Shown: one piece after another, positions 9,214 to 25,075 of the stretch
Layout of the letters: every line of letters begins with the position of its first letter
Position numbering within the stretch: the stretch's first letter is position 1
Virus record (IMG/VR): IMGVR_UViG_3300020429_000529
Coordinates: 262,762 to 326,761 of that record
DNA: 64,000 bases
DNA from: a virus
Direction: 5' to 3' (one strand)
The notes under the pieces: generated by a model
What the model saw: the letters and a program-made list of their open reading frames with translations, nothing else
What the model was told of the DNA's origin: nothing
The model's database searches: none
Translations under genes and position numbers: made by a program

Positions 9214-10866
9214 TTAGTCGGTCAGCGATCCCGACATGAACGACGAGATGACGTTCGGAGTCGCCGTGTCGAAGCCAACAACATCGAGCATTCCCGGGTC
9301 GCTGGGGTCAGCGATCGAGAAGCCGTTGGAGTTCATCGCAACGACTGCGAGCTTTGCATCCTCAACCCTCTTGGCGCGGTAGCGCTTGAGAGCCTCGAAC
9401 GGGTGGATCGAGCCGTAGTAAGTCTCCGAGTCCGTGAGGACCATGAAGGAGTCGAAGTCATCCTGCAGCGACATGGCGTGCGTCATGGGCAGAGAGCAGT
9501 CCGTGCCGCCGTAGGTGAGACCCGACATCTTCTTGAGAACCTGGTCAAGACGCATACGCGGAGTGATTCCAGCGTCCTTGATTCCCGTATCGAAGACCGT
9601 GATCTCGTAGTTGTTCTCGACGCGAGCCGTGACCATGCTGAGTACCGCCGCAGCCTCCGCGCAGGAGACGTTTTCGATACCGCTGCAAGCAACGCCCATC
9701 GAGCCCGAGGCGTCGATTCCGATGAAGTAGTTCTTACCCGTCGCCTCGACGTTGCCGAACGACGCGTAGAAGGCCTCATCCAGAGCATCAACGATGCGCT
9801 GGTCCGCCTGCCAGGTAAGCTTGCCTCGGAATCCTCCGCCCTGCGAGTAGGTCTTGAGCGCTACAAGGACCGAGAGCGGGTGCACTCGGCTCTTGCGCAG
9901 GTACGACTCGTCCGTGAGCTTGTCAAGAACGATCGCACGGTTCGCGCTCTTACCCGTACCAAGCACGCCGTAGCTCGTCAGACGACCGAGCGAACGGATC
10001 AGCGCCGTGAGCGGCATGCCCGGAAGCATGACCTCCCAAACCTCGCCCTTCGAAGCGAACTCCTTCGGGATCAGTTCGTGCGGCAGGTTGATCTTGTCCG
10101 CGCGGTACTTCTCGATGAGGTCAGCGACCTCCTGAGCCGAACCCGCAGCCTTCATCTGCTCCGCAGCGCGGAGAATCTTCAGGTCTGCAGCGATACGCCC
10201 CGGAAGCTTGCCCTTCGTGACGTAATCGTAGACGCGGTTGTGCTTGGTGTCGCCGAACGGGTGAGCCTTACGCATCAGGTCGCGGTGCGACCAGCGAGAC
10301 TGCGTAACGCCCTCCTCGGTAACGCGCTGCGGGTACTTCACAACCTGGTACGCCAGGCGCGAAGCATCCATCTCGTTGTACCAGCGAGCGATCGCCTTAC
10401 GGAGGCCCGTACCCCAGCCGCGCATCGCCGAAACGTACTGCGCGAACTGGAACAGGTGCGTACCGATACGAGCGACCTTCGGCAGCGAAGCGAGCGCGTA
10501 GGAACGCACTTCGGCGTCCTCAGACGCAGCCGCGATCGCAAGAGCGAAGAGCGCAGGCTCGTTCTTCGGAGCGCGTCCGGCGTCAGAGATCGCGACGATC
10601 TCATCGACCACTCGCTTTCCGTCCTCCTTGAGGCAGCGCAGGATGCAGTTGGCGTTGTCGATCGTGAGCTTGCGCTCGCCGACGTAGTAAGTACCGCCCT
10701 CTGAGCCGAGGATCAAGAATCGGCTGAGCCGATCCCAATCGGAGACCTGAAAGACGTACCCGCCTGCGTTGTTCTTGACCTGATTCTTCCCAAGAGCCTT
10801 GCGGGTCTGAGGAGTCGTTCGCATTCCAAAGTGAGTTGAGTACGCCATTTCTGTCACCCCTTTCAA
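9214..10866 (-). CDS. rsr: Ro60/TROVE-domain ribonucleoprotein (Rsr) with C-terminal vWA domain
   Basis: 550 aa; TROVE-like N-terminal region and C-terminal vWA with DxSGS MIDAS (IGIDASGSM); same architecture as Ro60/Rsr. Confidence 0.8.
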   Translation of the reverse strand: MKGVTEMAYSTHFGMRTTPQTRKALGKNQVKNNAGGYVFQVSDWDRLSRFLILGSEGGTYYVGERKLTIDNANCILRCLKEDGKRVVDEIVAISDAGRAPKNEPALFALAIAAASEDAEVRSYALASLPKVARIGTHLFQFAQYVSAMRGWGTGLRKAIARWYNEMDASRLAYQVVKYPQRVTEEGVTQSRWSHRDLMRKAHPFGDTKHNRVYDYVTKGKLPGRIAADLKILRAAEQMKAAGSAQEVADLIEKYRADKINLPHELIPKEFASKGEVWEVMLPGMPLTALIRSLGRLTSYGVLGTGKSANRAIVLDKLTDESYLRKSRVHPLSVLVALKTYSQGGGFRGKLTWQADQRIVDALDEAFYASFGNVEATGKNYFIGIDASGSMGVACSGIENVSCAEAAAVLSMVTARVENNYEITVFDTGIKDAGITPRMRLDQVLKKMSGLTYGGTDCSLPMTHAMSLQDDFDSFMVLTDSETYYGSIHPFEALKRYRAKRVEDAKLAVVAMNSNGFSIADPSDPGMLDVVGFDTATPNVISSFMSGSLTD

Positions 10867-11424: not shown

Positions 11425-11490
11425 ACTGCCATTGTATCATGGTCCTATTCACATTGTTCGGAGGAACGTGGGATTCCTCATGTCAGTAAG

Positions 11491-11565
11491 CGGGGTACAC
11501 GGGGATCGAACCCGCAGCCTCCGGATCGACAGTCCGGTGTTCTTCCATGTGCGAACTCCTACCCC
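11491..11565 (-). tRNA. tRNA-Asp(GTC)
   Basis: Manual cloverleaf: GGGGTAG acceptor, anticodon loop CTGTCGA, T-arm GCGGGTTCGATCCCCGT, discriminator G; 75 nt; no encoded CCA. Confidence 0.65.
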
Positions 11566-11579
11566 GAGTTCTATGTAAG

Positions 11580-11653
11580 CGAGGCCGAAGGGACTCGAAC
11601 CCTCAGTCTCCGGATCGACAATCCGGGGCATTCACCAATTATGCTACGACCCC
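11580..11653 (-). tRNA. tRNA-Asp(GTC), second copy with U32 anticodon-loop variant
   Basis: Cloverleaf GGGGTCG...; loop TTGTCGA; T-arm GAGGGTTCGAGTCCCTT; 74 nt. Confidence 0.6.
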
Positions 11654-11799
11654 AAGTTTTCAAGACGGCAGACTGGTCTTTCACCAATCACGCAGCACAA
11701 CAGAGCGCAGTATCAGAAGGTCTTGGCGTCCGATCAAGGACAGATCCTTATGAGTAACCCCGATGTCGCATGCGGTTGTCCCGCATCGCTACCGTCAAA

Positions 11800-11927
11800 A
11801 GCCGCTGGCAGGATTCGAACCTGCATCCTCCCGCTCCATATGCGATAACCGTTTGTCATCGACTCCTTCGCAGGAGTATGGGTTCGACGAACGACCGTTA
11901 GGCGCTCTACCGTTGAGCTACAGCGGC
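11800..11927 (-). ncRNA. tRNA-like RNA (128 nt): canonical acceptor, D-arm and T-arm, but anticodon arm replaced by a structured domain of about 80 nt
   Basis: GCCGCTG/CAGCGGC acceptor, GCTCAACGGTAGAGC D-arm, GCAGGTTCGAATCCTGC T-arm; no 5-bp/7-nt anticodon hairpin; insert has a CTCCT-GCGA-AGGAG GNRA hairpin inside a CCATA/TATGG stem. Confidence 0.5.
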
Positions 11928-11947
11928 AATCAGTATTCAGTTGTAAA

Positions 11948-12073
11948 TGGCCGGGGCAGGATTCGAACCTGCAAGATCAATTTATGAGATTGATGTGTTG
12001 ATAACCTTCATTCATTCGGCTCATTGCTGAGCATGTTATCGACAAAGGGTTGGTGCCATTACACTACCCGACC
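11948..12073 (-). tRNA. tRNA with CAT anticodon (Met/Ile2-type) carrying a D-loop insertion of about 52 nt (126 nt total)
   Basis: Acceptor GGTCGGG/CCCGGCC; D-stem GTGT...ACAC enclosing the insert (GATAAC/GTTATC stem plus GCTCA-GCAA-TGAGC hairpin); anticodon arm TCAAT-CTCATAA-ATTGA; T-arm GCAGGTTCGAATCCTGC. Confidence 0.45.
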
Positions 12074-12087
12074 TAAGTTCCTTTCAA

Positions 12088-12161
12088 TAGCGGATACGGG
12101 GATCGAACCCGTCTCTGCGGCTTATGAAACCGCCCTCTGCACACCAGCCGAGTCATCCGCA
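12088..12161 (-). tRNA. tRNA with CAT anticodon (Met-type); 1:72 is U-U unpaired
   Basis: Anticodon arm GCGGT-TTCATAA-GCCGC; T-arm ACGGGTTCGATCCCCGT; acceptor 6 bp GCGGAT/ATCCGC plus T1/T72 mismatch; 74 nt. Confidence 0.5.
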
Positions 12162-12380
12162 ATCTAAACACGGTTTGCAGGTCATTCTCCTGCCGGGCCT
12201 ACCCTCGGATCAGTCCGAGATCGGTCAGCGTTTGCAACCGCTCCTGCTTCTCGCAGGCGGAACCGTAAAACGTAGCGCCGTCTTTCGACGAGCGCTACAT
12301 GGGGCCGGTTGCGGGTGCCGAAGCACCAGCGTGGCCTCCACCACTTGCTCTTTTGCTTGAGAAGCAAGAAACTCGTTCAA

Positions 12381-12454
12381 TAGCGGGGGAAGGATTCGAA
12401 CCTCCGACCTTTTGGTTATGAGCCAAATGAGCTACCAGACTGCTCTACCCCGCA
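12381..12454 (-). tRNA. tRNA-Met(CAT), initiator-like
   Basis: Near-identical to bacterial tRNA-fMet: GCGGGG-TA-GAGCAGTCTGGTAGCTC...CTCATAA...GGTTCGAATCC; 1:72 U-U mismatch; 74 nt. Confidence 0.6.
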
Positions 12455-12532
12455 ATCAATAAAACAGATATGTTGGCGTTGCTTGGACCTTTGTGTGAGA
12501 TAAGTTAACCAATCAACTTCGACCTGTTTTAA

Positions 12533-12604
12533 TCAGAGTGACAGGAATCGAACCTGCTTAGACCTGGCCCCAAACCAGGCGACCTGCCAATGGCCCACAC
12601 TCTG
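12533..12604 (-). tRNA. tRNA-Pro(TGG)
   Basis: C1-G72, A73; anticodon arm CCTGG-TTTGGGG-CCAGG; T-arm GCAGGTTCGATTCCTGT; 72 nt. Confidence 0.65.
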
Positions 12605-12780
12605 TAATCGATGCTTGCTCCGTCCTCACAACCTCTTACTCTTGGACAGAATCGGGAGCTTACCCCGACAGACTTGCCTTCTTAGGGCGTGCGATCGTGC
12701 GCCGAGGTTTGGTAACGCCGATCTTATCTCCCCGCCTAAACGGGTCTCTGCAAACATCATCTGCTATTCGATTGTCAAAG

Positions 12781-12855
12781 TCGGAGTGATTGGATTCGAA
12801 CCAACGACCTTCTGTCCCCCAGACAGACGCGCTCACCAAGCTGCGCCACACTCCG
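12781..12855 (-). tRNA. tRNA-Pro(GGG)
   Basis: C1-G72, A73; anticodon arm TCTGT-CTGGGGG-ACAGA; T-arm GTTGGTTCGAATCCAAT; 75 nt. Confidence 0.65.
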
Positions 12856-13059
12856 AAACAAGAACAAGTATGGGGTGCCAAGGGAGACCCGACAGATAAT
12901 GTAAGCTCCTGCCTTTGACAGCAGTACGAGACACTTTGCGATTCGCTGGGCTCTGCCGATCTCAGCAAGCTGAGATTTACCCGAGAATCATGTCTCAAGC
13001 TTTTCGCGTAATTGATAACCCTACAGCTTCGACCTGTTCTTCTTATTCAGTTTTCAAAG

Positions 13060-13133
13060 TCAGGATGAAAGGATTTGAACCTTCGACCTCTTACTCCCGA
13101 AGCAAGCGCTCTGCCAAGCTGAGCTACACCCTG
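13060..13133 (-). tRNA. tRNA-Pro(CGG)
   Basis: C1-G72, A73; anticodon arm CTTGC-TTCGGGA-GTAAG; T-arm GAAGGTTCAAATCCTTT; 74 nt. Confidence 0.6.
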
Positions 13134-13894: not shown

Positions 13895-14530
13895 TCATTG
13901 GGTCGTCATGCCGACTTCGGCGATCCCCATTTCTTTGCGGATCTCGGTCGAAGACAACCCGATCAGCGCATCATTGAGAGGCTCTTCGGGTACAAAGTTG
14001 ATCGGCAACTGACCTGGCAGATCGTTGATCGTCCAGAGCTTGTCGTTCATGCGCCTCGGGTAGACATGGAACAAAGCTCTGATGCCCTGCGTCCCGACTG
14101 TCGAGTGCATGGAGACGATCCGCAGCGCCGTATCGATACCGATATGGATATGGATGTCTCGGACAGCAGCAAGAACGCCAGTCTTGTCGTAGAAGAGAGG
14201 ATGCTTCGAGACGATCAGCGGACCTTCGTCGTTGAACTGAGTCGCTCGCCCTTCCATGATCTTCGACTCGATCGTGCCCTTGTTGGCTCGGTCGATTGAC
14301 ATCTCGTAGCAGACATGGGCCGTAGGACCGGCGATCTCCGCTGCTCGCTGGTAGATGGCTCGATGGCCGTCATGGATGGGATTGAAAGATCCTGGTACGA
14401 GATGCAGTACCGAATCGCCGAACGGATGTTCGTCGCCGTTGATCGGATCGATCGCGCCGTTGGGATGGCGGACAAAAGCAAACAACGGGTCGTTCTGACA
14501 GGTGTGGTATGCGATCTCAAAGGTATACAT
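13895..14530 (-). CDS. nicotinamide/nicotinate mononucleotide adenylyltransferase (NMNAT, cytidylyltransferase superfamily)
   Basis: GSFNPIHDGH, the (H/T)xGH nucleotidyltransferase motif; start overlaps the upstream stop. Confidence 0.65.
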   Translation of the reverse strand: MYTFEIAYHTCQNDPLFAFVRHPNGAIDPINGDEHPFGDSVLHLVPGSFNPIHDGHRAIYQRAAEIAGPTAHVCYEMSIDRANKGTIESKIMEGRATQFNDEGPLIVSKHPLFYDKTGVLAAVRDIHIHIGIDTALRIVSMHSTVGTQGIRALFHVYPRRMNDKLWTINDLPGQLPINFVPEEPLNDALIGLSSTEIRKEMGIAEVGMTTQ

Positions 14531-15217
14531 TCAACCCTCTCCGTCAAGCCAGTGGTTGTGGTCTTCGGTCAGACCTCCGCTGCCAGAATCGTAGAGACGA
14601 GCAATATACTCGCCATTATTCAAGCTGGCAAACGACGGGTCATTGAGAAGCAGCGACATAACGGCGCGAGAGATAGATTCATCTTCCGCTCGACGCCGAC
14701 CGGCGAGCGCCTGCATGTTGACGCCTCCGTCAACAATGTAGAGAGCTTCCCATTCGGCCTTCTCTTGCTTCGAGATGGCGATCTTGTAGAACTCTCGGCT
14801 TCCGTCAGGTCGATGGATGCCTACAAAGGCTCGGTTATCGCCTCGACGCCAGCGCGTCGTCGTCAGCGCCGCTGAAATTACGATGCTGATGATCGGAGCA
14901 ACGCTGTTGCCCCTGTTGCGATGTTCGAGCGCTTGCAGGTACTTGGAGATGGTCTTCTCGGAGCAGAAGTCGAACTTGTCGAGCGCTCCAAGCGTCGGCT
15001 CAAGGAACCTCAGCGTTTCGCCCTGCTCGTAAGGCATATGCATGCCCAGGATCCTCGCAGAGGCTCCAGGAACGATCAGAAGCTCTCCGAGGCTCATGCC
15101 GCCGCCCGTAGCGAACAGCGACAGCAGAGGAGCCTTAGAGCCGTCTCCTACCTCGTCCAGATACCTCTCAGAGAACTGGACGACGGCTTCGGGATAATCG
15201 AGTACCCATTGACTCAT
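14531..15217 (-). CDS. CinA C-terminal domain-like protein (possible NMN deamidase PncC-like)
   Basis: LFATGGGMSLGELLIVPGASARILGMHMPY resembles the CinA_C ESCTGG...PGSS...GG.V.Y signature; lies between NAMPT and NMNAT. Confidence 0.4.
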   Translation of the reverse strand: MSQWVLDYPEAVVQFSERYLDEVGDGSKAPLLSLFATGGGMSLGELLIVPGASARILGMHMPYEQGETLRFLEPTLGALDKFDFCSEKTISKYLQALEHRNRGNSVAPIISIVISAALTTTRWRRGDNRAFVGIHRPDGSREFYKIAISKQEKAEWEALYIVDGGVNMQALAGRRRAEDESISRAVMSLLLNDPSFASLNNGEYIARLYDSGSGGLTEDHNHWLDGEG

Positions 15218-15225: not shown

Positions 15226-16788
15226 CTAAGCGGCGGCTGCCGCCTTCATTGCAACGATCTCGGGCAGTTCGGCTCGTTCGCGGACCTCAGCAAAAGTCCA
15301 TTCCTGAACGATCTCCCCGTCTCGGAAGACCTCAACAAGCAGGTCTCCGCCGAAATCATCAACATTCTCATTGAGGGTATTGATGGTCCGCAGCGTACCG
15401 CCATCGTTGACGAGCGCCAGCAGACCTCGCTTGCTGTTCTTGCTGCTGCCGGTCTTGGGTTGCTTGTAGACCTCAAAGCCTTCGCCGTTGATCTCGCTGT
15501 AGCAAGCCTTGAAAGCGCAAGCGTAGGTGTCTCGGTTCATCTTCTGCAACAGAGCGCCGCCGCTGCCGAAGGCCAGGTTCTCGACAGACCATCCGGCATC
15601 GACAACCGCTTGCAGAATCGCTCGGAGGCTTCGCCAGTTGATACCATCGCCCTGAATGACTCGAATCGAGTCATGCAGAACCTTGTAGCCCTTGGCGTTT
15701 TCGGTGTACCCGAACTTCTCGCCGAGGACTTCGAGAACCTTGGGGACGATCTCGGTCGGTTCGCCCGAATCGGGACGAACAACCAGAACGCCCTCTCGTT
15801 CCATGATCTGTTCCTTGAGTTCTCCGCCCCAGACATCGGCGCAGAGTCCGAACAGGTCATAGGAATCAGAAACGCAGGCAACAAAGCCCGTTGGGAACTG
15901 TTCGACCAGACGGCGACAGATTTCTCGTTCGCCTTGCGGACCCTTGATGGTCATGATCGAGTGTTCGGTTGCGGGGATGCTGTAGCCGCTCATTGTTCGG
16001 CTGTAGAACTCGTCCCATGCTCGGAACGAATCATCTGCATCCCAGTCGCCATGAGGAGTAATGCCAATTCGATCGTATTCGAGCAGCTTCTCGAACTCGT
16101 CGCCCTGGTAGAACTGCGTTGTCATCTCGATCGCAGCCATCGTATCGGTGCCTGCAAAGTTGACGAGATGGGCCGCTCCGCCCAGCGCTGCGCTTTCGAC
16201 GCTCGATACGCCTCGGTAGCCGAAGTCATGCAGGCGACTCGGCATGAGGATGGGGATCAGATGATCCTCGGTCGTCATCTGCATGAACTCGAAGATGGTC
16301 TGCTTGCAGGAGCGAGACAGCGAGGCGACGGTCATTGGATACCAGACTTGTACGAGAATGGTTTCCAAGAAGTTCGTCAGCCAGAAGCAGTTCGGGTCGG
16401 TGTTCTCGATCATCATGAGGACATTCGAGACCGGAACGACCGTACCTTCGGGGACGGCCCGAATCGTTACCGGCAGTCGTCCGCCATGGTTCTTGATGAT
16501 GTATCGCCAGCCCTCTTCATTGAAGAGCGTTTCATCGCCCATGAAGTGGTGCTTACAGAAGGCCTTGATGCGAGGCAGATCATGGTAGCCAACGACGCCG
16601 CCTCGGAAGAACCGCTTGAGGAAGTATTGCAGACCGAAGAAGACGGTTTCGTCAGAGAAGTCTGAACCCGCCCTCGCCTCGAAATACGAGACCAGCCGCT
16701 CAACGCCTTCAACATAAAGACGATGATGCGTGATCTTGTAGCTGTCGGTAAAGTTGGGCAACGAAAGATGAAGTGCCTGCGCTACCAT
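15226..16788 (-). CDS. nadV: nicotinamide phosphoribosyltransferase (NAMPT)
   Basis: 520 aa; N-terminal SYKITHH...YFLKRF and overall NAMPT/NadV-like sequence; adjacent to NMNAT as in phage NAD salvage modules. Confidence 0.75.
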   Translation of the reverse strand: MVAQALHLSLPNFTDSYKITHHRLYVEGVERLVSYFEARAGSDFSDETVFFGLQYFLKRFFRGGVVGYHDLPRIKAFCKHHFMGDETLFNEEGWRYIIKNHGGRLPVTIRAVPEGTVVPVSNVLMMIENTDPNCFWLTNFLETILVQVWYPMTVASLSRSCKQTIFEFMQMTTEDHLIPILMPSRLHDFGYRGVSSVESAALGGAAHLVNFAGTDTMAAIEMTTQFYQGDEFEKLLEYDRIGITPHGDWDADDSFRAWDEFYSRTMSGYSIPATEHSIMTIKGPQGEREICRRLVEQFPTGFVACVSDSYDLFGLCADVWGGELKEQIMEREGVLVVRPDSGEPTEIVPKVLEVLGEKFGYTENAKGYKVLHDSIRVIQGDGINWRSLRAILQAVVDAGWSVENLAFGSGGALLQKMNRDTYACAFKACYSEINGEGFEVYKQPKTGSSKNSKRGLLALVNDGGTLRTINTLNENVDDFGGDLLVEVFRDGEIVQEWTFAEVRERAELPEIVAMKAAAAA

Positions 16789-16982: not shown

Positions 16983-17016
16983 GGCTGTTCCTCCCTAATG
17001 CTCCACGCAGCCCTTG

Positions 17017-18129
17017 TCAGTGGCCGAAGTATTTCATGCTGATTTCCTTGATCTCGTCCTGGGAGGCAAGGATAGCAAGATTCGCCTGTTCAACGAGAGG
17101 GCTTCCTTGACGGAAAGCGATGCCGTAGTTCTGCGGGGCGAATGTCGTATCCGCCATGACGACGACATCTTGACCTTCTCCGTTCGCGAAAAACGCCAGG
17201 TTCGGGACATCGCCAACAACAGCCTCGACTCGGCCCATGATAAGAGCAGCGATACACTGGTCGTAGTTGTCGTACTCCCTGACGATGCCATTGTAGAACT
17301 CAACCTCATCGACGCTGGTCGTTCCGCTGACGACAGCGATCTTCTTGCCCTTGAGATCGGAGGGACCATCGATCCGAGCTTCAAACTGCTGAACAACATT
17401 GAACGAGGTAATCGAAGCAGTCAGCGAACTGACGAGGATTGCAACGCAGAAGAAGCAGAGGACAGCAACGATTCGAGCGGCAACGCGCTTGGGGTAAACA
17501 TCGCCGTAGCCGATTGTCGAACCTGTTGTAAAGGCGAGCCAGACAGAGTTTGCGCTGCCCTTCATGACTTCCATAAAGGTCAGTCCGTCGTCGTCATTAG
17601 CATCTTGCTTGCGCTGATCGTCTGTAATGTAGAGAAGAAAACCAAAGACGCAGAGAGCCGCCAAGAACAATGCGCAGATGACGAGAAGGTTGACGATCAG
17701 GGGGATGCGGACTTCGATCCATGCTTGAATCGATGAAACAAAATCCTGGTTCGATTCTTCGGCGATCATAATGCCGAGACCCGTATTCATGTACGGTTGA
17801 GAGAAGTCGTAGATCTGCTCTCGTTCGAGATTGATCGTAATCCCGTTCATGATGCCGTCGATCTGATTGTCGCCCTGAAGCGCCGTGAACAGGTCGGCAA
17901 AGCGATCAAAATGAACAACCTCGACTTGCCAGTTGGCTGTGTCGCCGATCGTTGACAGAACTTCTGCATCGAAACCAGACATTGAGCCGTTTTCGCCTTC
18001 GATGAAGAAGGGTTCTTCGGCGACGATACCGATTCGAACAGTTCTCGGTTCAGAGACCTGAATGGGATCGCTCTGCGCCGATGCGACTGTTGCAAAGAGT
18101 GCGATGACTGCAAGAACGAGAGTCTTCAT
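17017..18129 (-). CDS. GluR0-like ligand-gated potassium channel (SBP lobe 1 - M1-P-M2 with TIGYGD filter - SBP lobe 2)
   Basis: Signal peptide MKTLVLAVIALFATVASA; family-3 SBP-like halves interrupted by two TM helices and pore helix with TTGSTIGYGDVYP; AGGAGA 7 nt upstream of ATG 18129. Confidence 0.65.
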   Translation of the reverse strand: MKTLVLAVIALFATVASAQSDPIQVSEPRTVRIGIVAEEPFFIEGENGSMSGFDAEVLSTIGDTANWQVEVVHFDRFADLFTALQGDNQIDGIMNGITINLEREQIYDFSQPYMNTGLGIMIAEESNQDFVSSIQAWIEVRIPLIVNLLVICALFLAALCVFGFLLYITDDQRKQDANDDDGLTFMEVMKGSANSVWLAFTTGSTIGYGDVYPKRVAARIVAVLCFFCVAILVSSLTASITSFNVVQQFEARIDGPSDLKGKKIAVVSGTTSVDEVEFYNGIVREYDNYDQCIAALIMGRVEAVVGDVPNLAFFANGEGQDVVVMADTTFAPQNYGIAFRQGSPLVEQANLAILASQDEIKEISMKYFGH

Positions 18130-18144
18130 CTCGGGTCTCCTGAG

Positions 18145-18180
18145 TTTGAAAAAGCCCCTCGTCCTGCGGAACAGGACGAG
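18145..18180 (-). terminator. rho-independent terminator downstream of the PspA-like gene
   Basis: CTCGTCCTG-cggaa-CAGGACGAG hairpin followed on the minus strand by GGGGCTTTTTC. Confidence 0.7.
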
Positions 18181-18200
18181 AGGCAAAGTGAGGGGGTGAT

Positions 18201-18899
18201 TCAGAAGTCTACGGACGACCCGCTGCCGCCGTACTTGTCTTCGAGGCTCTCGGCGTTGCCAACGCCAGCCATTTCCTCGAAGCTCTCGGCCTCGGCTTCG
18301 GACTGCTCGACGCTGCGCTCCAGGTCGTCGAGAGCCGAAAGGCCCTTGCCCTCGCTGAGGCCGTTCTGCGCCTTGGCGAACTTCGTGCGGATTGCCGCCG
18401 ACCGCTGGCGAGCGGCAAGGCTGACGACATTCTGCTCGGCGTTGCTGACCTTCTGGCGAGCCTGTTGCAGACGGGTCTGCATCTGCTCGAACAGCGCGCC
18501 GTCTCGCTTGATGTCCGCTTCGAGGCGAGAGACCGTCTTCTGCGCCGTTTCGAGCGCATCGAGGGCCTGCTGACCATCCTTGCGAGCCGCGGCGAGTTCA
18601 TCGGCCTTGCCTTCGAGAGCTTCGCCGGTGTTGCCGTCCTTGAGAGTGCCCGCATGGGCCTTGATCTTGTCGTAGATGCCCTGGTACTTGGCGACATCGG
18701 CCTTGGCAGCATCGAGCGCCCTGGTGTTCTGCTTCTGCGCGGCGCGAAGGGAAGCGATCTCGCTTGTGAACTTGGCGATCTCTTTCTTGGAGTCTTCGAT
18801 CGCCATCTTGCCCTTCGTTACATCATCGACATCGATCGCCTTGGCAACATCGTCAGATGCTTTGCGGCCTCGGCGGAAAATTGCGTCCATCAGTCCCAT
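18201..18899 (-). CDS. PspA/IM30/Vipp1 family protein (paralog 1)
   Basis: MGLMDAIFRRG... N-terminus and extended coiled-coil composition typical of PspA. Confidence 0.6.
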   Translation of the reverse strand: MGLMDAIFRRGRKASDDVAKAIDVDDVTKGKMAIEDSKKEIAKFTSEIASLRAAQKQNTRALDAAKADVAKYQGIYDKIKAHAGTLKDGNTGEALEGKADELAAARKDGQQALDALETAQKTVSRLEADIKRDGALFEQMQTRLQQARQKVSNAEQNVVSLAARQRSAAIRTKFAKAQNGLSEGKGLSALDDLERSVEQSEAEAESFEEMAGVGNAESLEDKYGGSGSSVDF

Positions 18900-18972: not shown

Positions 18973-19467
18973 TCAGCCGTTGCTGATGATCGCCTGCATG
19001 GTCAGGTTCGTCAGGTTGATTGCCGACTGCAGCTTGAGGAGCGAATGCTCCAACTCCTCGCGGGAGAAGTCGCCGAGCGGAACCGAATCGATGACCGTGA
19101 TGGGAGACTCGTCGAGATCGCTGATCTGATCCGTCGCTGCGGGTTCATCGATGTTCGTTGCGAAGGGCTTGATCTCGCTGTTGATGCTGACCAGACGCAT
19201 GAAGAGCGCCAGTGCCGTGTCGTTGTCGGGGATGTCAGCGAGCTTGCCGATCTGCGATTCGATGACGAGTTCGCTGTCATCGTCGGAGATGTCGAGGATT
19301 GCGACGAAGTTCTCGTCGCCAACGGGAAGAACGATCGAAACGCTCTTCTCCGCTTCGTCAGTCTCGATGATCCCGTACCCGAGATCCTGAACCGCCTCCG
19401 CCAGTCCGGCGATGTCGGCGATTTTGGTTGATGCCTCAGTTGCAGGCGTTGCCGTGGCCGTCGTCAT
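18973..19467 (-). CDS. acidic hypothetical protein
   Basis: 164-aa D/E-rich ORF co-oriented downstream of PspA. Confidence 0.4.
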   Translation of the reverse strand: MTTATATPATEASTKIADIAGLAEAVQDLGYGIIETDEAEKSVSIVLPVGDENFVAILDISDDDSELVIESQIGKLADIPDNDTALALFMRLVSINSEIKPFATNIDEPAATDQISDLDESPITVIDSVPLGDFSREELEHSLLKLQSAINLTNLTMQAIISNG

Positions 19468-19538: not shown

Positions 19539-20243
19539 TCAGCGTTTGATGACCATCATTTCATGCGAGCCGATACTTGTTCCGAAGAACAGTTGAATCA
19601 ACCCGCCGTCGTCGTTGTCGGGATTGCCCATCTCAAGGATGAGCGCCTCGGGGCTATGCGCTCCCTCGGCTTCTGTGTCGTATTGAACGACAGTCGTCAA
19701 GAGCCGATCGCCCTGCGGAGGGTTGCGGCTTGCCCATGCTTGCAGGGGCGAAAAGCTCTTTCTGATGAACTGACACTCGACCGCAGGACCATCTTCAGGA
19801 ACCTGGTCATAGAAGAACTCATTAGCGTATTCGAGACTTCCGATTTCAAAGTCATCGGTGTCTTCGGGTTCTTCGAAGATGTATTCCTGCTCTGCGTCAA
19901 GAATGTCTTGACGGTTGCCGCTATCAAAGCCGCCAGCTTCGTAGAAGATGGTGAAATCAGGCTCGGCATCGGGAACGATGGTAACGAGCAGGTAAACCTC
20001 GGTTCCGTCATTATCGAGCTTGAAGAACAGCCATTCGCAAAGGCCGTCCATCTGTCTGATTTCGTAGACAGAGCGAACAACGCACTCTTGCCCTCGTAGC
20101 CCAACGCCCTGACCGAGAGACGCCATGAGCGCTTCGGTGTCGTTGATGGTGATGAAGCTTTCTGGTCGAACTTCTCGCCAGAAATCAGCTTTGGATTGAT
20201 CGAGTATCTCTGACATGGTTTCTCCGAATCGTAGGTCGTTCAC
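19539..20243 (-). CDS. hypothetical protein
   Basis: 234-aa ORF, same strand block. Confidence 0.4.
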   Translation of the reverse strand: MNDLRFGETMSEILDQSKADFWREVRPESFITINDTEALMASLGQGVGLRGQECVVRSVYEIRQMDGLCEWLFFKLDNDGTEVYLLVTIVPDAEPDFTIFYEAGGFDSGNRQDILDAEQEYIFEEPEDTDDFEIGSLEYANEFFYDQVPEDGPAVECQFIRKSFSPLQAWASRNPPQGDRLLTTVVQYDTEAEGAHSPEALILEMGNPDNDDGGLIQLFFGTSIGSHEMMVIKR

Positions 20244-20252
20244 CCGTTAGGG

Positions 20253-21041
20253 TCAACTCCCTTTGACGACAGCGATGACGACAACAATGATGACAGCGAT
20301 GACGACAACGCTGATGATGACGCCGAGGATGCCGAAGCCGCCGCCCGAGGCGTGATAGACCTGCGGCTGACCATAGGCGTAGCCGTACTGTCGCATCTGC
20401 GTGTTCATGAACATCGCATCAGTCATCATGTCGTACAGAATGAATGTCCCCAGAGCGTCCATGTACCCGTAGCCGCCGTGGGATTGATTGTAGGTGATGT
20501 TGTAGGTTTTCCCTCCGACGCTTGTCGATTGAGGGATATAGTCTGGTCGGGTCGAGGGTTGAGATGAGAAGCTCGTGGGATACTTCTGTTTGATCTCAGC
20601 GCCCTTCTGTTGCTTGAACGCAGCCGTCGCATCGGACCTGCTGTTGAAATGCGTGCCTTGCTTCTTGGCTCGATCGTGGAGAGCCTTCTCCGCCGCCGTC
20701 TTCTGCCTGGCTTCGGCCTTCGACATGCGAGGCTTTGTTGAACCCTTCTTGCTGCCCCAGCCGCTCTTGCTGCTGGTCGCCTTGTCGTTCTTCTTGTCGT
20801 TTTTGTTCCAGTTGTTGTTCTTGTTGGACTTCTGAGTCGTCTTCTTCGGCTGAGAAGCCTTCGGCTTGCTGTACGATCGGCTGCTGCTTCTGCTGCCGCC
20901 TCGCTGACCGTAGGCATCAGCAGGAACCGCAGCGCACACCGTGAAGGCGAGCAAAGCGCAAGCCAGAAGCTTGCCAGGTTTCGAAATGTCCGGCAGCTTC
21001 GGGAGTCCGAGGGCTGCTCTCTTTTTGATCCAAGTCAACAT
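20253..21041 (-). CDS. basic low-complexity protein with C-terminal TM anchor
   Basis: N-terminal signal/TM, K/S/N-rich linker, C-terminal VIISVVVIAVIIVVVIAVV helix. Confidence 0.4.
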   Translation of the reverse strand: MLTWIKKRAALGLPKLPDISKPGKLLACALLAFTVCAAVPADAYGQRGGSRSSSRSYSKPKASQPKKTTQKSNKNNNWNKNDKKNDKATSSKSGWGSKKGSTKPRMSKAEARQKTAAEKALHDRAKKQGTHFNSRSDATAAFKQQKGAEIKQKYPTSFSSQPSTRPDYIPQSTSVGGKTYNITYNQSHGGYGYMDALGTFILYDMMTDAMFMNTQMRQYGYAYGQPQVYHASGGGFGILGVIISVVVIAVIIVVVIAVVKGS

Positions 21042-21190
21042 CGTCGTCTCCTTATGAGGAATCTGAGCCGATCGATTTTCAACCGACTCCTACAGTATGA
21101 CAGCTTTCCTCTTCACCTGCAAAGGCGAAGCGGTCAGTGGCTCGCAGATACAACTATAAGGGAAGCGTTTCGGGAGATTCTGGTTGCAGA

Positions 21191-21781
21191 TTAGCTGCGA
21201 ATAAACCATGAATCATCAACCTGCGTTTTTACGCGATCTTTGATCTGCTCCATAAACCATCGCAGAGGCCTGTTGCTCTTGCCTGCAGTATGGTTGTCAA
21301 TGATGTTGAAGATCAGGAAGAGATCCCAATCTTCAATCTCGTTGACCAGCCGATCAAGACGATCCTGATTGAAGGAACCCTTCTTTTCGAATCGCCGGTA
21401 CAAAGCAAAACTTTCATCATGGTATTGCACCATGTTGAGCATGTCTTCATCATCAAGGAACTTCGACAAGAACTCTCTTGCAAGAGAGGCATGACTGTAC
21501 GGGCTATCAATGGAAGAACCAGGCGTTGCATGGATCTTGCGAATATCATGAACATGAATCAGAATGAGCAGCTTCATGCGCTGAACATCATCGATCATGT
21601 TCTTCCCGTAGAAGTAATCGAGGTTCGATTCAAGCTCTTGAATGTGCGCTCTGATGGTTCCTTCATTATGCCCAGAGCGAGGCTTGCCCCAGTCAAGTCC
21701 AGCCTGGTAGAGTTCGTCTTCGATAATTTGATCGAAAGCGAACCGCAGAGTTTCAAGGCTCTGATCCGTTTCCGTTGACAT
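21191..21781 (-). CDS. hypothetical protein, possible HD-domain phosphohydrolase
   Basis: LILIHVHDIRK resembles the HD motif; weak. Confidence 0.3.
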   Translation of the reverse strand: MSTETDQSLETLRFAFDQIIEDELYQAGLDWGKPRSGHNEGTIRAHIQELESNLDYFYGKNMIDDVQRMKLLILIHVHDIRKIHATPGSSIDSPYSHASLAREFLSKFLDDEDMLNMVQYHDESFALYRRFEKKGSFNQDRLDRLVNEIEDWDLFLIFNIIDNHTAGKSNRPLRWFMEQIKDRVKTQVDDSWFIRS

Positions 21782-21802
21782 ATCGTGTTGTCTTTCTGTT
21801 GC

Positions 21803-22153
21803 TCAAAGCAATCGCATGGGGTCAAGAATGTCCCTGATACGGTTTGCTGCTTTTAGACGATCTTGGGCTGTCATCTCTGGTATGATAAGCGCAGCATAGG
21901 ACTCAAGAAGGCACATGAGTACCTCTTTTAGAGCCGCTCCATCAATAGCTATTCCTTCCATCTTTTTTGTCTGGACGAGTTTCAAAACATCGGGTCTTTC
22001 GTATGCATCGAAATACTCCGAATCATCGTACAAGACAATATGACCATGGTCGCCCTGGTAATCATCATTCTCATCGAACACGCCTACAAATGCGTTCTTG
22101 AGATCAATGTTGATCGGCGGCTCTTGCATATGTTCGAGCAGGTCCATGGTCAC
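21803..22153 (-). CDS. hypothetical protein
   Basis: 116-aa ORF. Confidence 0.35.
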   Translation of the reverse strand: MTMDLLEHMQEPPINIDLKNAFVGVFDENDDYQGDHGHIVLYDDSEYFDAYERPDVLKLVQTKKMEGIAIDGAALKEVLMCLLESYAALIIPEMTAQDRLKAANRIRDILDPMRLL

Positions 22154-22254
22154 CTCCCTGAAAAGGTATCCGCGCCGTATCCGACGCGGACACCTCGACG
22201 AAGAACTCCAACGAAGAGATTCTACCTCAAAACGCTTTCACTTTGTTCGAGAAA

Positions 22255-23523
22255 CTACGCACCTGGAATTTCGGAGATCTTTTCCCCGATAACAAACCTA
22301 TGTTCGCCTGGTGCAATCTCATGCTGACCAATCTGAGTGGGCTCATCCGATAGATTGCTGACGAGCAGTATCTCGATACCAGCTACCTTCACGCCTGACC
22401 ATTGGACTCCGCTCTCCTTGTCTGTTTCGACGTTCATGATCTCTTTTTCGATCGGTAGTCTGAACAGAGCATCAAGAGAGTGCCATGCCTCCATAGCGAG
22501 ATCCATGTAGTCTCTCTGGAATGACTGAGCGAAGCAGTAGAAACAATCAGCGCCTCGCATACGGAAATGCATCATCAGAGCTTTGTTGTCTGTTTCTGAT
22601 GGCTTGGGAGCGTGGTAAAGATTTTCTCCGCCCGAATGGTAAATGTATTCGCCGACCCACGGGATAAGCATATGGCCTTCGGGTAGATGTCTCTTTGCAG
22701 CGCTCAGTCTTTCGAGTCCCTGCCAGAAGATCGCAGCGCGAGGGTTCGGAGCGACTATCCCATTCTGGATCCAGTCGATGCAATGCACCGATGCTGTTTC
22801 ATACGGGTAGGTTGATGGCATAGAAACATCAAGGCAGTCAAGATACATTGAAACCGGGTTGTATCCTTCCTCTTCCCACCTTGTTAGGAGATCTCTTCTG
22901 TCGGGCCAAATCATGCCCTCGTCGCGAGAGTTTGCCGAGTTGCCATAGTTTCCAAGGCGTGCCTGATTGATGCGAGGATCAGGATGTTCTCGAATCATGC
23001 GATGAATCTCTCGCACGTTCTTCTCAATCATCTCGACATCGCCCTCAAGATCCATGAAGACGTAATCAAGTTGAGCGATGTTATCGAGCGCCAGTTGCAG
23101 CGAATCTGGCTGACCTCGCCTGTCTACGTCATCGCCGTAGGGGAAGGGCGAGTTGTATTGGCGCATCATGATGCCAATCGGCTCTCCTCGCTCTTTCATC
23201 ACGCGAGAGAGTTCGATTGCGTACCAGCCGTACCAGCCGTCGTCGCTATAGCGAGGACCGCCATGAAAGCCGCCTGTATGGGGTACGGGCGAATAGCCAA
23301 GAGGATGCTGTTCGTATTGAATATCAGGTACATCCGAGCCGTTGAGCCTTGACGGGAAGTCTGCTCTGTTTTCGGGATGACCGTAGAAGAAGTCAGGAAA
23401 GATGATCGGCTTTTTGCCGAAAGTCGCCTTCTTCTGCTTGTCGATTTCGACTTTCTTGCCTGGTTGCAGCTTGACATTCGCTGCTTCGACTGCTTTTATT
23501 ACCTGAGCTTGTGTTGGTTTCAT
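22255..23523 (-). CDS. hypothetical protein (422 aa)
   Basis: Long ORF with W/Y-rich content; no motif recognised. Confidence 0.45.
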   Translation of the reverse strand: MKPTQAQVIKAVEAANVKLQPGKKVEIDKQKKATFGKKPIIFPDFFYGHPENRADFPSRLNGSDVPDIQYEQHPLGYSPVPHTGGFHGGPRYSDDGWYGWYAIELSRVMKERGEPIGIMMRQYNSPFPYGDDVDRRGQPDSLQLALDNIAQLDYVFMDLEGDVEMIEKNVREIHRMIREHPDPRINQARLGNYGNSANSRDEGMIWPDRRDLLTRWEEEGYNPVSMYLDCLDVSMPSTYPYETASVHCIDWIQNGIVAPNPRAAIFWQGLERLSAAKRHLPEGHMLIPWVGEYIYHSGGENLYHAPKPSETDNKALMMHFRMRGADCFYCFAQSFQRDYMDLAMEAWHSLDALFRLPIEKEIMNVETDKESGVQWSGVKVAGIEILLVSNLSDEPTQIGQHEIAPGEHRFVIGEKISEIPGA

Positions 23524-23884: not shown

Positions 23885-24727
23885 TTACGCTCTCGCTCGG
23901 TACTTCCTGTCCCATGCCTTGAGCTTGTCAAGGTCAAAGTTGGCGTTGTTGTTTCGCAGCTTCCCTTTGCCCCAGAACATCTCGATCATCCGATCCTTCG
24001 GTAACAGCTTCGTCGTCTTGTCGTCAGTGGTCGGAGACCATCCGAGACGAGCAACGCAGTTGAGTATAGCGTCGGGATGGTAGGATTTCATCAACTCGTC
24101 AAGAGATAGTCCATCGTCTCGCTTTGACAGTTTTCTGCCCTCGTGCATGATAAGACCGACATGGTAGAAGTCTGGCAGATCAGCGCCGAGCGCAGCAAAC
24201 AGCATCGCCTGGAATGACGTATTCGTCGTATGGTCCTTGCCTCGGATGACGCAATCGATTCCAAGCTCTATGTCGTCGATGACGGTTGCGAAGTTGTAAG
24301 TCGGCGTCCCGTCTTGTTTTCGTAGGATCTTGTTGCCAGCAATGCTCTTGTCGGTATCAGAGATACAGATCTGACCAGCGATGCCGTCTGTCCAGTGATC
24401 GAGATCGACGCCTCGGAGATCGCTCAGAACAACTCCGTAACCATTGTCGCTTGCCCATCCATCTGCGATGAGCCGATCGATGTAGCTGTTGTAGATGTCG
24501 ATACGATCGCTTTGATGAACGAGATCATCGTAGTCGAGACCAAAGTGCCCGAGCATGCTGACGATCTCTTTTGTATGGATCGCTTTTGATCGAGATTTAT
24601 CGGTGTCATCGATCCGTACAACAAAAGAGCCGCCCGTTGAACGAGCGGCTAACCAGTTTTGGTATGCTGTTCTAAGCGAGCCGAGATGCGGCGATCCCGT
24701 TGGCGATGGTGCGAATCTCGTTTTCAT
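23885..24727 (-). CDS. truncated class-I glutamyl-tRNA synthetase paralog (glutamyl-Q tRNA(Asp) synthetase-like, catalytic domain only)
   Basis: HIGH-type RFAPSPTGSPHLGS; KLSKR (KMSKS-type, as AKLSKQ in GluQRS/YadB); 280 aa with no anticodon-binding domain. Confidence 0.7.
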   Translation of the reverse strand: MKTRFAPSPTGSPHLGSLRTAYQNWLAARSTGGSFVVRIDDTDKSRSKAIHTKEIVSMLGHFGLDYDDLVHQSDRIDIYNSYIDRLIADGWASDNGYGVVLSDLRGVDLDHWTDGIAGQICISDTDKSIAGNKILRKQDGTPTYNFATVIDDIELGIDCVIRGKDHTTNTSFQAMLFAALGADLPDFYHVGLIMHEGRKLSKRDDGLSLDELMKSYHPDAILNCVARLGWSPTTDDKTTKLLPKDRMIEMFWGKGKLRNNNANFDLDKLKAWDRKYRARA

Positions 24728-24743: not shown

Positions 24744-24818
24744 TGACGCTGAAGGGAATCGAACCCTCGGACTTCTCCTTGAGAGGGAGAGATTTCTACC
24801 AGCAGAAACTACAGCGCC
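24744..24818 (-). tRNA. tRNA-Glu(CTC)
   Basis: Acceptor GGCGCTG/CAGCGTC; anticodon arm TCTCC-CTCTCAA-GGAGA; T-arm GAGGGTTCGATTCCCTT; 75 nt; 17 nt upstream of the GluRS-like start. Confidence 0.6.
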
Positions 24819-24823
24819 TCGAA

Positions 24824-24895
24824 TGACCCCTACGGGACTCGAACCCGTATTACAGCCTTGAAAGGGCCGCGTCCTAACCATTAGACGAAGGGGCC
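24824..24895 (-). tRNA. tRNA-Glu(TTC)
   Basis: GGCCCCT...; D GTCT-AATGGTTA-GGAC; anticodon arm CGGCC-CTTTCAA-GGCTG; T-arm ACGGGTTCGAGTCCCGT; 72 nt. Confidence 0.6.
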
Positions 24896-24905
24896 AGATT
24901 GTAAA

Positions 24906-24980
24906 TGACGCTGACGGGACTCGAACCCGCGAACTTCGGGATGAAAACCCGAGATTTCTGCCCACAGAAACTACAGCGCC
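24906..24980 (-). tRNA. tRNA-Glu(TTC), U32/U38 loop variant
   Basis: Same acceptor as 24744..24818; anticodon arm TCGGG-TTTTCAT-CCCGA; T-arm GCGGGTTCGAGTCCCGT; 75 nt. Confidence 0.55.
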
Positions 24981-24987
24981 ATGTAAA

Positions 24988-25062
24988 GTGACCCCACCGG
25001 GATTCGAACCCGGATTCCGACCTTGAGAGGGTCGTGTCCTAAACCTGCTTAGACGACAGGGC
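24988..25062 (-). tRNA. tRNA-Glu(CTC)
   Basis: GGCCCTG...; anticodon arm CGACC-CTCTCAA-GGTCG; T-arm CCGGGTTCGAATCCCGG; three G-U pairs in acceptor; 75 nt. Confidence 0.5.
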
Positions 25063-25075
25063 CAAAATTTGAAAG

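Follow-up and report, generated by a model that had tools for sequence, protein, structure and literature searches.

The channel gene and its product

We analyzed a putative ion-channel gene in a 64,000-nucleotide stretch of the IMG/VR virus record IMGVR_UViG_3300020429_000529 (positions 262,762 to 326,761 of that record), referred to here as the window, in whose coordinates all positions are given. The gene encodes a protein of the GluR0 type, i.e. a prokaryotic homologue of ionotropic glutamate receptors (iGluRs) in which the two halves (S1 and S2) of a ligand-binding domain (LBD) with a solute-binding protein (SBP) fold flank a pore module consisting of two transmembrane (TM) helices, M1 and M2, and a pore segment, P. 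Our results suggest that this is a functional channel carried on genomes of ~0.47-0.50 Mb, most likely those of huge tailed phages, a reading that we consider probable when taken as a whole. The features of the gene, its product and its upstream region are as follows.

17017 to 18129, minus strand: complete coding sequence of the GluR0-type channel, 370 amino acids plus stop (open reading frame list, Pfam, PDB search, AlphaFold2 model and Foldseek)
18073 to 18129, minus strand: predicted signal peptide, residues 1-19 (MKTLVLAVIALFATVASAQ), with the predicted cut between ASA and QS (hydropathy peak and sequence)
17740 to 18072, minus strand: S1 of the LBD, residues 20-130, with T98 and R103 (GITINLER) (alignment to GluR0 1ii5 residues 5-102 and to glutamine-binding protein, GlnBP)
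17632 to 17709, minus strand: M1 TM helix, residues ~141-166 (hydropathy; AlphaFold2 helix 130-169)
17521 to 17577, minus strand: pore helix, residues 185-203 (AlphaFold2 helix; Ion_trans_2 and Lig_chan matches)
17500 to 17517, minus strand: K+ selectivity-filter signature TIGYGD, residues 205-210 (sequence)
17395 to 17484, minus strand: M2 helix, residues 216-245, including SLTASITSF (235-243) (hydropathy; AlphaFold2 helix 216-250)
17020 to 17379, minus strand: S2 of the LBD, residues 251-370, with G269-T270-T271-S272, D307 and Y335 (alignment to GluR0 1ii5 112-209 and GlnBP 117-242; residue conservation)
18136 to 18141, minus strand: Shine-Dalgarno-like AGGAGA, 6 nucleotides 5' of the ATG (direct reading of the sequence)
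18154 to 18184, minus strand: terminator-like hairpin between the PspA-like and channel genes, 14 base pairs with 9 G-C pairs, followed by TTTTT (consensus scan)

The stop codon of the channel open reading frame (ORF) lies at 17017-17019 on the minus strand, and two candidate start codons were considered, an ATG at 18129 (370 amino acids) and a TTG at 18186 (389 amino acids). The TTG start was rejected, as it falls within the terminator-like hairpin and the ATG has its own ribosome-binding site. Because AGGAGA is located 6 nucleotides upstream of the ATG and the TTG is inside the hairpin, we take ATG 18129 to be the true start, and the gene boundaries proposed in a first-pass annotation of the window proved to be exact. 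The consensus scan identified this hairpin as the strongest terminator-like site in 14-22 kb of the window. An ORF of 240 amino acids on the opposite strand (17014-17736, plus strand) was rejected as a shadow ORF, since its tblastn matches in related loci coincide exactly with the channel gene.

The first-pass annotation had also described a signal peptide, S1, an M1-P-M2 module with TIGYGD, and S2, and this architecture was confirmed by every approach used. In Pfam searches, SBP_bac_3 gave a single match over residues 32-370 that was split by an insert (E-value 1e-20), and additional matches were found to Lig_chan (9e-12, residues 150-263), Lig_chan-Glu_bd (5e-8), Ion_trans_2 (5e-7, residues 193-243) and Ion_trans. 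The best match in a phmmer search of PDB sequences was the glutamine-binding protein 4f3p (1e-27), which aligned as two segments separated by the insert. The ligand-binding core of GluR0 (Slr1257; 1ii5/1iit) was also matched in two stretches, 30-124 and 257-354 (9e-20), and the NMDA receptor chains GluN1 and GluN2 gave one continuous match, over about residues 90-360 (95-355 for GluN2), that crosses the pore. Hydropathy analysis showed three hydrophobic segments, at residues 1-19, ~141-166 and ~216-245. An AlphaFold2 model built from 48 homologues had a mean predicted local distance difference test score of 89.1 and a predicted template modelling score of 0.71, and displayed alpha/beta lobes on either side of the pore module. 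When this model was compared with the PDB by Foldseek, the top matches were the LBD-pore chains of GluA1, GluA2 and GluA4 (E-value 2e-20, 385-390 aligned columns), and GlnBP 4f3p covered the ligand-binding part with a template modelling score of 0.90, normalised to GlnBP; agreement of this extent greatly exceeds what chance would produce. An SBP fold flanking the pore was thus found by Pfam, by the PDB search and by AlphaFold2 with Foldseek.

Because S1 and S2 form one bilobed domain on one side of the membrane, with only two full TM helices between them, the TIGYGD segment must be re-entrant, in agreement with the first-pass annotation, and not an extracellular loop. Judging from the predicted structure, the P segment must be re-entrant from the cytoplasmic side, which is the inverted topology demonstrated by experiment for GluR0 (PMC13099474). 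The 370-residue protein ends with S2; hydropathy and the model revealed no hydrophobic segment past residue 245 and no amino-terminal domain (ATD). The channel exhibits every testable feature of GluR0 and of the "Group 1" prokaryotic iGluRs, namely a split SBP fold, M1-P-M2 with a filter, no ATD or fourth membrane segment (M4), a signal peptide, and the ligand residues.

Three other classes of protein were considered and rejected. A eukaryote-type iGluR (AMPA, kainate or NMDA receptor, or the three-TM chlorovirus A162L type) was rejected because no M4 follows S2, no ATD is present, and the alignment covers only the LBD and M1-M3 of the GluA chains. A minimal viral K+ channel, Kcv-like or from a small phage, was rejected because the protein has 370 amino acids with about 230 residues of SBP fold. 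Finally, a component of an ABC importer was rejected because neither a permease nor an ATPase gene is adjacent to the channel gene, the ABC genes of the window being about 35 kb away.

HMMER alignment of the channel with GluR0 paired GITINLER with GPISVTPER, VVSGTTSVD with VVRDTTAVD, and AVVGDVP with AVMFDRP. It follows from this alignment and that with GlnBP that T98 and R103 (alpha-carboxylate), T270/T271, and D307 (alpha-amino) are in place. Among the 48 homologues, R103 was found in 45, D307 in 44, Y335 in 46 and T271 in 39, whereas position 98 was T in 37 and S in 6, and position 270 was T in 31 and S in 16. The nine members of the window clade, described below, all possess a signal peptide (hydropathy and sequence reading) and all keep TIG(Y/F)G(D/E) as the filter, seven of them as TIGYGD, one as TIGFGD (P0002) and one as TIGYGE (P0004). 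The pore helix motif WLAF.T was retained in every intact clade copy, and T241 and F243 of M2 were invariant within the clade. The M2 sequence SLTASITSF resembles the SYTANLAAF gate motif of iGluRs.

Selection, relatives and known counterparts

The channel gene is intact and under strong purifying selection. In a second strain, represented by a 502,461-bp contig with 98.8% nucleotide identity over the region, the gene showed 13 differences, of which 12 were synonymous and 1 was non-synonymous (N280K), so that the ratio of non-synonymous to synonymous polymorphism (pN/pS) was about 0.025 between the two strains. Nine homologue clusters with pairwise identities of 40-88% formed a monophyletic clade, in which all members were full length and possessed the signal peptide, R103, D307 and a GYG filter. 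This clade is a branch of its own, and its identity to the other GluR0-like proteins compared did not exceed 37%. A HMMER search of 1.84 billion representatives found only two or three 50%-identity clusters within the clade, after which identity fell to 34%, and the 185,579 GTDB species-representative genomes yielded no close homologue of the channel and only weak partial matches. At E<1e-30, the GluR0-like family as a whole comprised 127 clusters (50% identity) drawn from many phyla, and the claim of the first-pass annotation that such channels are rare outside a few bacterial lineages was therefore not upheld. The channel diverges faster than nicotinamide phosphoribosyltransferase (NAMPT), which is encoded next to it; identities to two related loci (L018 and L019) were 48-50% for the channel vs 74-77% for NAMPT.

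The first-pass annotation had further suggested that channels of this kind were undescribed in phage-like elements, and we found no convincing counterpart in the GenBank phages, IMG/VR, BFVD phage entries or literature that we searched. No full-length match was present in 50,697 GenBank phage records (INPHARED), which gave partial matches to the SBP or to the pore. Several of the records matched by the SBP half or by a synthetase-like protein of the window (e.g. OR848201, OR846593 and MT835927) are short unannotated contigs with bacterial-housekeeping-like genes, suggesting host contamination. A search of IMG/VR retrieved no member of the window clade and only two GluR0-like genes, which are of other types and doubtful; one of these, which lies between genes for a P-type ATPase and an M16 peptidase, probably represents host DNA. 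The only structural match over the full length in BFVD was E3T502 of Cafeteria roenbergensis virus (CroV; E-value 2e-21, 378 columns), with phage entries matching only as SBPs or small K+ pores. E3T502 is annotated as a "putative ABC-type amino acid transporter", which looks like a mis-annotation; judging by the structural match, this giant-virus protein is probably an iGluR-like channel. Our literature search found no published report of a GluR0-type channel in a bacteriophage, including huge, jumbo and megaphages. The channel is not a new kind of molecule; it adds a member to the known GluR0 family, in a carrier from which that family is undescribed.

GluR0 (Slr1257) of Synechocystis PCC 6803 (1II5/1IIT/1IIW) shares with the window channel the order of signal peptide, S1, M1, P-loop with T-x-G-Y-G-D, M2 and S2, the absence of an ATD and a third TM segment, and the ligand-contact residues, R103 aligning with Arg, T270/T271 with the TT pair, D307 with Asp, and position 98 being S or T. 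Glutamate-gated K+ currents were reportedly shown for GluR0 by Chen et al. in 1999. However, the two proteins are distant in sequence, with a match that is split in two, and the window channel is carried on a ~0.5-Mb ORFan-rich, probably viral genome and not on a bacterial chromosome. The Synechocystis protein is located in the plasma membrane, where both of its termini face outward, and it complements an E. coli strain deficient in K+ uptake, for which its soluble domains are required; the first phenotype for prokaryotic glutamate receptors was reported only in 2026 (PMC13099474). The "Group 1" homologues, in which the glutamate-binding halves flank two TM helices with a K+ filter, numbered 12 in the survey that defined them, and all were bacterial (Ger et al. 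2010, PMC2950845). The window channel fits this definition, having the same SBP family 3 and Ion_trans_2 content; the differences are that 127 clusters were found here vs 12 proteins then, and that the window clade is on a mobile or viral genome.

Among viruses, glutamate-receptor-like channels have been listed only for the chloroviruses PBCV-1 (A162L) and OSy-NE5, and phages were credited only with small two-TM K+ channels (Greiner et al. 2018, PMC6163359). The PBCV-1 protein showed glycine-dependent single-channel activity and has three TM segments and a similarity to NMDA receptors at an E-value of ~0.01, and the survey detected no gene like it in other viruses (PMC6163359). These proteins and CroV E3T502 resemble the window channel in being virus-encoded and iGluR-like, but they belong to viruses of eukaryotes, the PBCV-1 protein having three TM segments and E3T502 having 514 amino acids, whereas the window channel is of the two-TM, K+-filter bacterial type. 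The small viral K+ channels (Kcv, and those of a Vibrio phage, Mycobacterium phage Myrna and Lactobacillus phage PLE2) have in common with it a K+ pore with a TxGYGD or GFGD signature. The window pore region was 41% identical to the PLE2 "ion transporter" over 53 residues, and small phage K+ channels were partial structural matches. However, these are bare pores of about 80-230 amino acids that have no LBD and the opposite orientation (PMC6163359), while the window pore is located inside a predicted periplasmic amino-acid-binding domain. Lastly, GlnH-type binding proteins (4F3P, 1WDN) are the best sequence and structure match to S1/S2, but they are soluble, lack a membrane insert and work with a permease and an ATPase, neither of which is encoded adjacent to the window channel.

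The carrier genome and the genes around the channel

The window maps to about 209-273 kb on a contig of 498,610 bp (ENA ERZ17089788 NODE_1289088_length_498610). At least 11 samples, among them several Tara Oceans runs, contained the same genome or its proteins on contigs of 0.2-1 Mb, and sister genomes with a 50%-identical channel were 486,961, 467,394 and 252,791 bp in length, such that a genome size of ~0.47-0.50 Mb recurs across samples. Two syntenic relatives, retrieved from IMG/VR with a profile of the conserved 211-amino-acid neighbour protein, are IMG/VR viral genomes, namely IMGVR_UViG_3300020429_000539 (L020; 488,051 bp, NAMPT 86.5% identical) and IMGVR_UViG_3300033066_000693 (L021; 257,887 bp). 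For two window proteins, a MoxR ATPase and a synthetase-like protein, the best match among GenBank phages was to an uncultured megaphage, LR756511 (595 kb) and LR745206 (635 kb), respectively. About 12-35% of the genes around the channel in these genomes had any Pfam match, vs 16/16 around a 31%-identical homologue on an ordinary bacterial chromosome. The annotated features outside the channel gene are the following.

11490 to 13133 and 24744 to 25150, minus strand: two tRNA arrays (ARAGORN, 12 tRNAs: two Asp, three Met, three Pro, four Glu)
13895 to 15217, minus strand: 228-amino-acid protein and 211-amino-acid cytidylyltransferase-like (NMNAT-like) protein (CTP_transf_like in 6/6 homologues; PGSFNPxHxxH and SSTxIR motifs)
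15226 to 16788, minus strand: NAMPT (Pfam NAMPT_N and NAPRTase; synteny)
18201 to 18899, minus strand: PspA/IM30(Vipp1)-like protein, 232 amino acids, directly upstream of the channel
18973 to 19467, minus strand: acidic 164-amino-acid ORFan upstream of the PspA-like gene (tblastn synteny; no family match)
19539 to 21041, minus strand: 234-amino-acid acidic protein and 262-amino-acid bitopic membrane protein (tblastn to L002, L010, L018, L019 and L027; hydropathy)
23885 to 24727, minus strand: truncated GluRS/GlnRS catalytic-domain protein (phrog_35649, 2e-48), beside four or five tRNA-Glu genes (24744-25150)
32420 to 35673, minus strand: MoxR-like AAA ATPase and VWA/DUF2201 pair, shared as a two-gene unit with megaphage LR756511
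36164 to 37363, minus strand: glutamine-synthetase-like (GlnA-like) protein
45428 to 49896 and 52811 to 54615, plus strand: two paralogous large proteins (phrog_25518)
58125 to 59792, plus strand: flotillin, 555 amino acids (SPFH/Band 7, 2e-28, and Flot domain)

The gene content of the window includes Ro60/TROVE, NAMPT, DNA methyltransferase, GlnA-like, ABC permease and ATPase, sigma-70-like, flotillin, UvdE, MoxR/VWA and truncated GluRS/GlnRS-like genes, and genes for a CCA-adding enzyme, a Holliday-junction resolvase, CysRS and another, class-II aminoacyl-tRNA synthetase are located just beyond it; a related genome contains an EF-Ts gene. Huge phages are known to collect host-like genes. The MoxR/VWA pair has a counterpart at 20001-22735 of LR756511.1 (L011), with 35-39% identity, and in part also in the jumbo phages phiRSL1, BCSR5 and PBS1/AR9. 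No other synteny with megaphage LR756511 was detected within 41 kb beyond this pair. The region examined looks like an accessory arm.

The second phrog_25518 protein has, besides an NMT1-like solute-binding region, an OmpA peptidoglycan-binding domain at its C-terminus, and is followed by genes for an ABC permease (BPD_transp_1) and an ATPase, which together could constitute a virus-encoded import system. Clues to the host are the Sec-type signal peptides and the OmpA-like domain, the latter hinting at a Gram-negative host. The flotillin gene is the third membrane-organisation or membrane-stress gene of the 64-kb window, besides the channel and PspA-like genes. Glutamate- and glutamine-related genes cluster in this genome, whose channel LBD most resembles glutamine-binding proteins, although this may be a coincidence. 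Rfam added two tRNA-like matches to the tRNAs found by ARAGORN, at 24906-24980 and at 11800-11927, the latter extending over 128 nucleotides for the full 71-position model. The Ro60/TROVE gene (9214-10866) is about 1 kb away from this long match, which could represent a tRNA with an intron or else a Y-RNA-like (YrlA-type) partner for Ro60.

The channel gene was located just upstream of the NAMPT gene in every carrier (at least nine related genomes), with at most a short variable spacer or small ORFs between them. The N-terminal part of the 228-amino-acid protein looks CinA/PncC-like on inspection. A profile search of the 211-amino-acid NMNAT-like protein against the PDB gave no match, whereas Pfam CTP_transf_like did match. 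Together with NAMPT, the two proteins form what appears from their sequences to be an NAD+ salvage module resembling NARP2, an NAD+-reconstitution pathway that is used by phages against NAD+-depleting defences (10.1101/2024.02.11.579819). A second CTP_transf_like gene was noted at 61150-61659, and a gene for a phosphoribosyl-pyrophosphate-synthetase-like protein about 8 kb upstream in the relatives L018 and L019. The 211-amino-acid gene is followed by the tRNA array and genes for a 181-amino-acid protein and Ro60.

On the other side of the channel gene, the PspA-like protein matched Pfam PspA_IM30 at 3e-6 and 27.3 bits, which is under the cut-off of 33.9. A profile of three homologues aligned residues 2-211 with residues 2-192 of Vipp1/PspA chains at an E-value of 1e-3; the top four PDB matches were all Vipp1/PspA, and 8/8 homologues had a precomputed PF04012 hit, though scores of this kind can be raised by coiled-coil composition. 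Based on these sequence comparisons, the PspA assignment appears reasonable. The PspA-like gene was directly upstream of the channel gene in three lineages: that of the window, that of an outgroup contig (L015; channel 34% and PspA-like protein 47% identical), and that of a 42-kb contig from Logan SRR26389772 (L027; PspA-like protein 46% identical over its full length). In the subclade P0003-P0008, which keeps the channel, neither the PspA-like gene nor the 164-amino-acid ORF is present at this site, and L002 and L010 have another upstream gene. The 164-amino-acid ORFan was found in the window lineage and L027; the L015 contig ends inside the PspA-like gene. We conclude that the association between the channel and PspA-like genes is probably ancestral and is not obligatory.

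Farther upstream, the 234- and 262-amino-acid genes are kept in most channel carriers and are missing from L020, itself without a channel. The 262-amino-acid protein (20253-21041, minus strand) combines a hydrophobic segment at its N-terminus with a long, basic region of low complexity and, at its C-terminus, a very hydrophobic helix (GILGVIISVVVIAVIIVVVIAVV). Within the island formed by the 262-, 234- and 164-amino-acid, PspA-like and channel genes, conservation is highest in the central and C-terminal part of this protein, with 55-68% identity in 4/5 of the other carrier loci compared and 39% in L027. This island is a natural presence/absence polymorphism.

Proposed function and alternatives

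Sequence comparison and the structural model provide good support for the molecular function, a K+ pore of the host inner membrane that is gated by amino acids. The fold, the motifs, the selection, the synteny and the pattern of presence and absence were observed directly, whereas we infer that the protein forms a tetramer, which ligand it binds, in which direction K+ flows, when the gene is expressed, what it does in infection and that the element is viral; the gating of a tetrameric pore by a periplasmic amino acid is taken from what is known of GluR0. The protein would be made during infection from its own ribosome-binding site and be directed by its signal peptide through the host Sec pathway to the inner membrane. 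There, the bilobed S1/S2 domain would reside in the periplasm, with M1-P-M2, presumably as a tetramer, forming an inverted K+-selective pore. Binding of an L-amino acid via its alpha-carboxylate (R103, T98 and T270/T271) and alpha-amino group (D307) would close the clamshell and pull M2 open. The gating ligand may be glutamate or other amino acids that reach the periplasm by leakage or by lysis of neighbouring cells, and effluxed glutamate was suggested as a ligand source by the authors of the 2026 study of GluR0 (PMC13099474).

Once open, the pore would let K+ flow down its electrochemical gradient and move the membrane potential toward the K+ equilibrium potential, such that an energised cell would gain a fast passive K+ uptake. 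Seawater contains about 10 mM K+, at which the bacterial K+ equilibrium potential is less negative than the fully energised membrane potential. Pore opening would therefore admit K+ and pull the potential toward the equilibrium value, and if respiration failed, the conductance would hold the potential near that value as long as the K+ gradient lasts. The phage could thereby buffer the membrane potential, K+ content and turgor of its host throughout a long, DNA-heavy infection (about 0.5 Mb per virion), coupled to the supply of periplasmic amino acids. The channel may act in this alongside the PspA-like membrane-stress protein and the NAD+ salvage genes.

Several observations weigh against the reading of a functional channel of use to a phage. 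Both the direction of K+ flux and its consequence depend on the host and on external K+. The AlphaFold2 model is that of a monomer alone, while the pore is presumed to be tetrameric. The residue preceding D307 is Gly306 in the window lineage, Tyr in most relatives and His in GlnBP. Three of the relatives indicate that the channel is dispensable. At 6173-7256 of L027, the channel sequence is split such that it occupies three reading frames, and TNGFGD stands in place of the filter; both neighbours, the PspA-like gene upstream and the NAMPT gene downstream, are intact. Since an identical truncated product of 217 amino acids was found on 17 contigs, this copy is a real, fixed pseudogene and not an assembly error. 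In L020, the closest of the IMG/VR relatives (locus 5994-8578), a block of ~4.3 kb from the 262-amino-acid gene through the channel gene is absent, leaving the flanking genes about 460 nucleotides apart, and L021 also lacks the island at the syntenic site with the flanking genes kept. Because two close relatives have no channel and one has a frameshifted copy, the channel is an accessory gene, part of an island that is old yet dispensable. The terminator-like hairpin makes it less likely that the channel and PspA-like genes must be expressed together. Thus, the PspA neighbour noted by the first-pass annotation is real and recurs in three lineages, but the hairpin between the genes, the subclade without the PspA-like gene and the lineage with the decayed channel speak against a strict partnership. 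Finally, no capsid, portal, terminase or tail gene was found in ~84 kb of the ~499 kb (about 45 ORFs, PHROGs and/or Pfam), and neither tblastn of a 1358-amino-acid neighbour against phages nor a PDB search revealed structural genes.

As hallmark genes were not seen in the ~84 kb read, the viral identity of the carrier rests on indirect evidence. We therefore considered whether the element might be a cellular replicon (a megaplasmid or chromid, or the very small genome of a symbiont), with an ordinary bacterial GluR0 homologue of housekeeping function as its channel. The lack of structural and packaging hallmarks in the window and 10 kb on each side would fit this explanation, as would the many host-like genes, including those for the ABC transporter, sigma-70, flotillin, an OmpA domain, UvdE and the GlnA-like protein. 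However, IMG/VR lists as viral two relatives, of 488 kb and 258 kb, that share the gene order, and roughly 65-88% of the genes have no Pfam match, vs 0/16 around the bacterial homologue. The redundant tRNA arrays (4-5 Glu, 3 Met and 3 Pro), the truncated or divergent tRNA synthetases and the CCA-adding enzyme also argue against a cellular replicon, as do the absence of a close channel homologue from the species genomes searched, the recurring genome size, and the fact that no ribosomal or plasmid genes were seen in the region read. We consequently assign a cellular replicon a low probability and regard the carrier as very probably a huge phage. The first-pass description of the element as phage-like is strongly suggested by the IMG/VR relatives, tRNA arrays and ORFans, though it falls short of proof by hallmark genes.

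The losses described above, together with the faster divergence of the channel relative to NAMPT, also raise the question of whether the protein conducts at all. It might instead serve in the periplasm as a membrane-anchored sensor or decoy for amino acids, or its gene, acquired recently from a host, might be in the process of being lost. The low pN/pS between strains is difficult to reconcile with these explanations, as is the conservation of the GYG filter core and the WLAF.T pore helix in all intact copies, with TIGFGD and TIGYGE as conservative variants. Moreover, the clade is old, with 40-64% identity between sublineages and a conserved position, and the sole decayed copy has also lost the filter signature, as expected under relaxed selection and unlike the intact copies. 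A non-conducting protein is thus very improbable, and a conducting, GluR0-type channel remains our preferred interpretation.

Other roles can be imagined for such a conducting channel. It might serve as a lysis clock or as a switch in superinfection or abortive infection, in which amino acids set free by the lysis of neighbouring cells, or escaping from the damaged host, would alter the membrane potential and hence the triggering of holin, or it might supply K+ as the counter-ion needed to replicate about 0.5 Mb of DNA per virion. The outward-facing LBD (hydropathy, AlphaFold2; GluR0 topology, PMC13099474) would suit such roles, and so would the location of the gene in a block with PspA-like, NARP2-like NAD+-salvage, tRNA and Ro60 genes, several of which have counter-defence or repair functions. 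However, no holin, endolysin or known immunity gene is adjacent to the channel gene, and the block is a conserved gene order with a terminator-like hairpin inside it and not a shown operon, and we consider these roles quite unlikely. Somewhat less doubtful, though still unlikely in our view, is that the channel is a sensory device, by which periplasmic amino acids released by lysis of neighbouring cells or leaking from a stressed host would open the K+ pore and thereby reset the membrane potential, the timing of lysis or the resistance to depolarising abortive infection, in concert with the PspA-like protein in membrane repair. Buffering of the host membrane potential and K+ content by an amino-acid-gated pore is the role that we favor.

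Virus-encoded ion channels are few, and the known phage examples are bare K+ pores, to which an amino-acid-gated channel adds a pore that is controlled by an extracellular signal. The physiology of prokaryotic glutamate receptors is nearly unexplored, and purifying selection on such a receptor in a probable virus suggests that control of K+ conductance pays in infection. The variants found among close relatives, in which the gene is present, absent or a pseudogene, provide a ready-made natural comparison, and with only 370 amino acids and a confidently predicted structure, the protein may be a convenient minimal model for the coupling of an LBD to a pore. If the channel does serve as a sensory device, it would be the first case of a phage described as having a chemically gated "excitable membrane" function, and it would offer a natural handle on the purpose of prokaryotic glutamate receptors.

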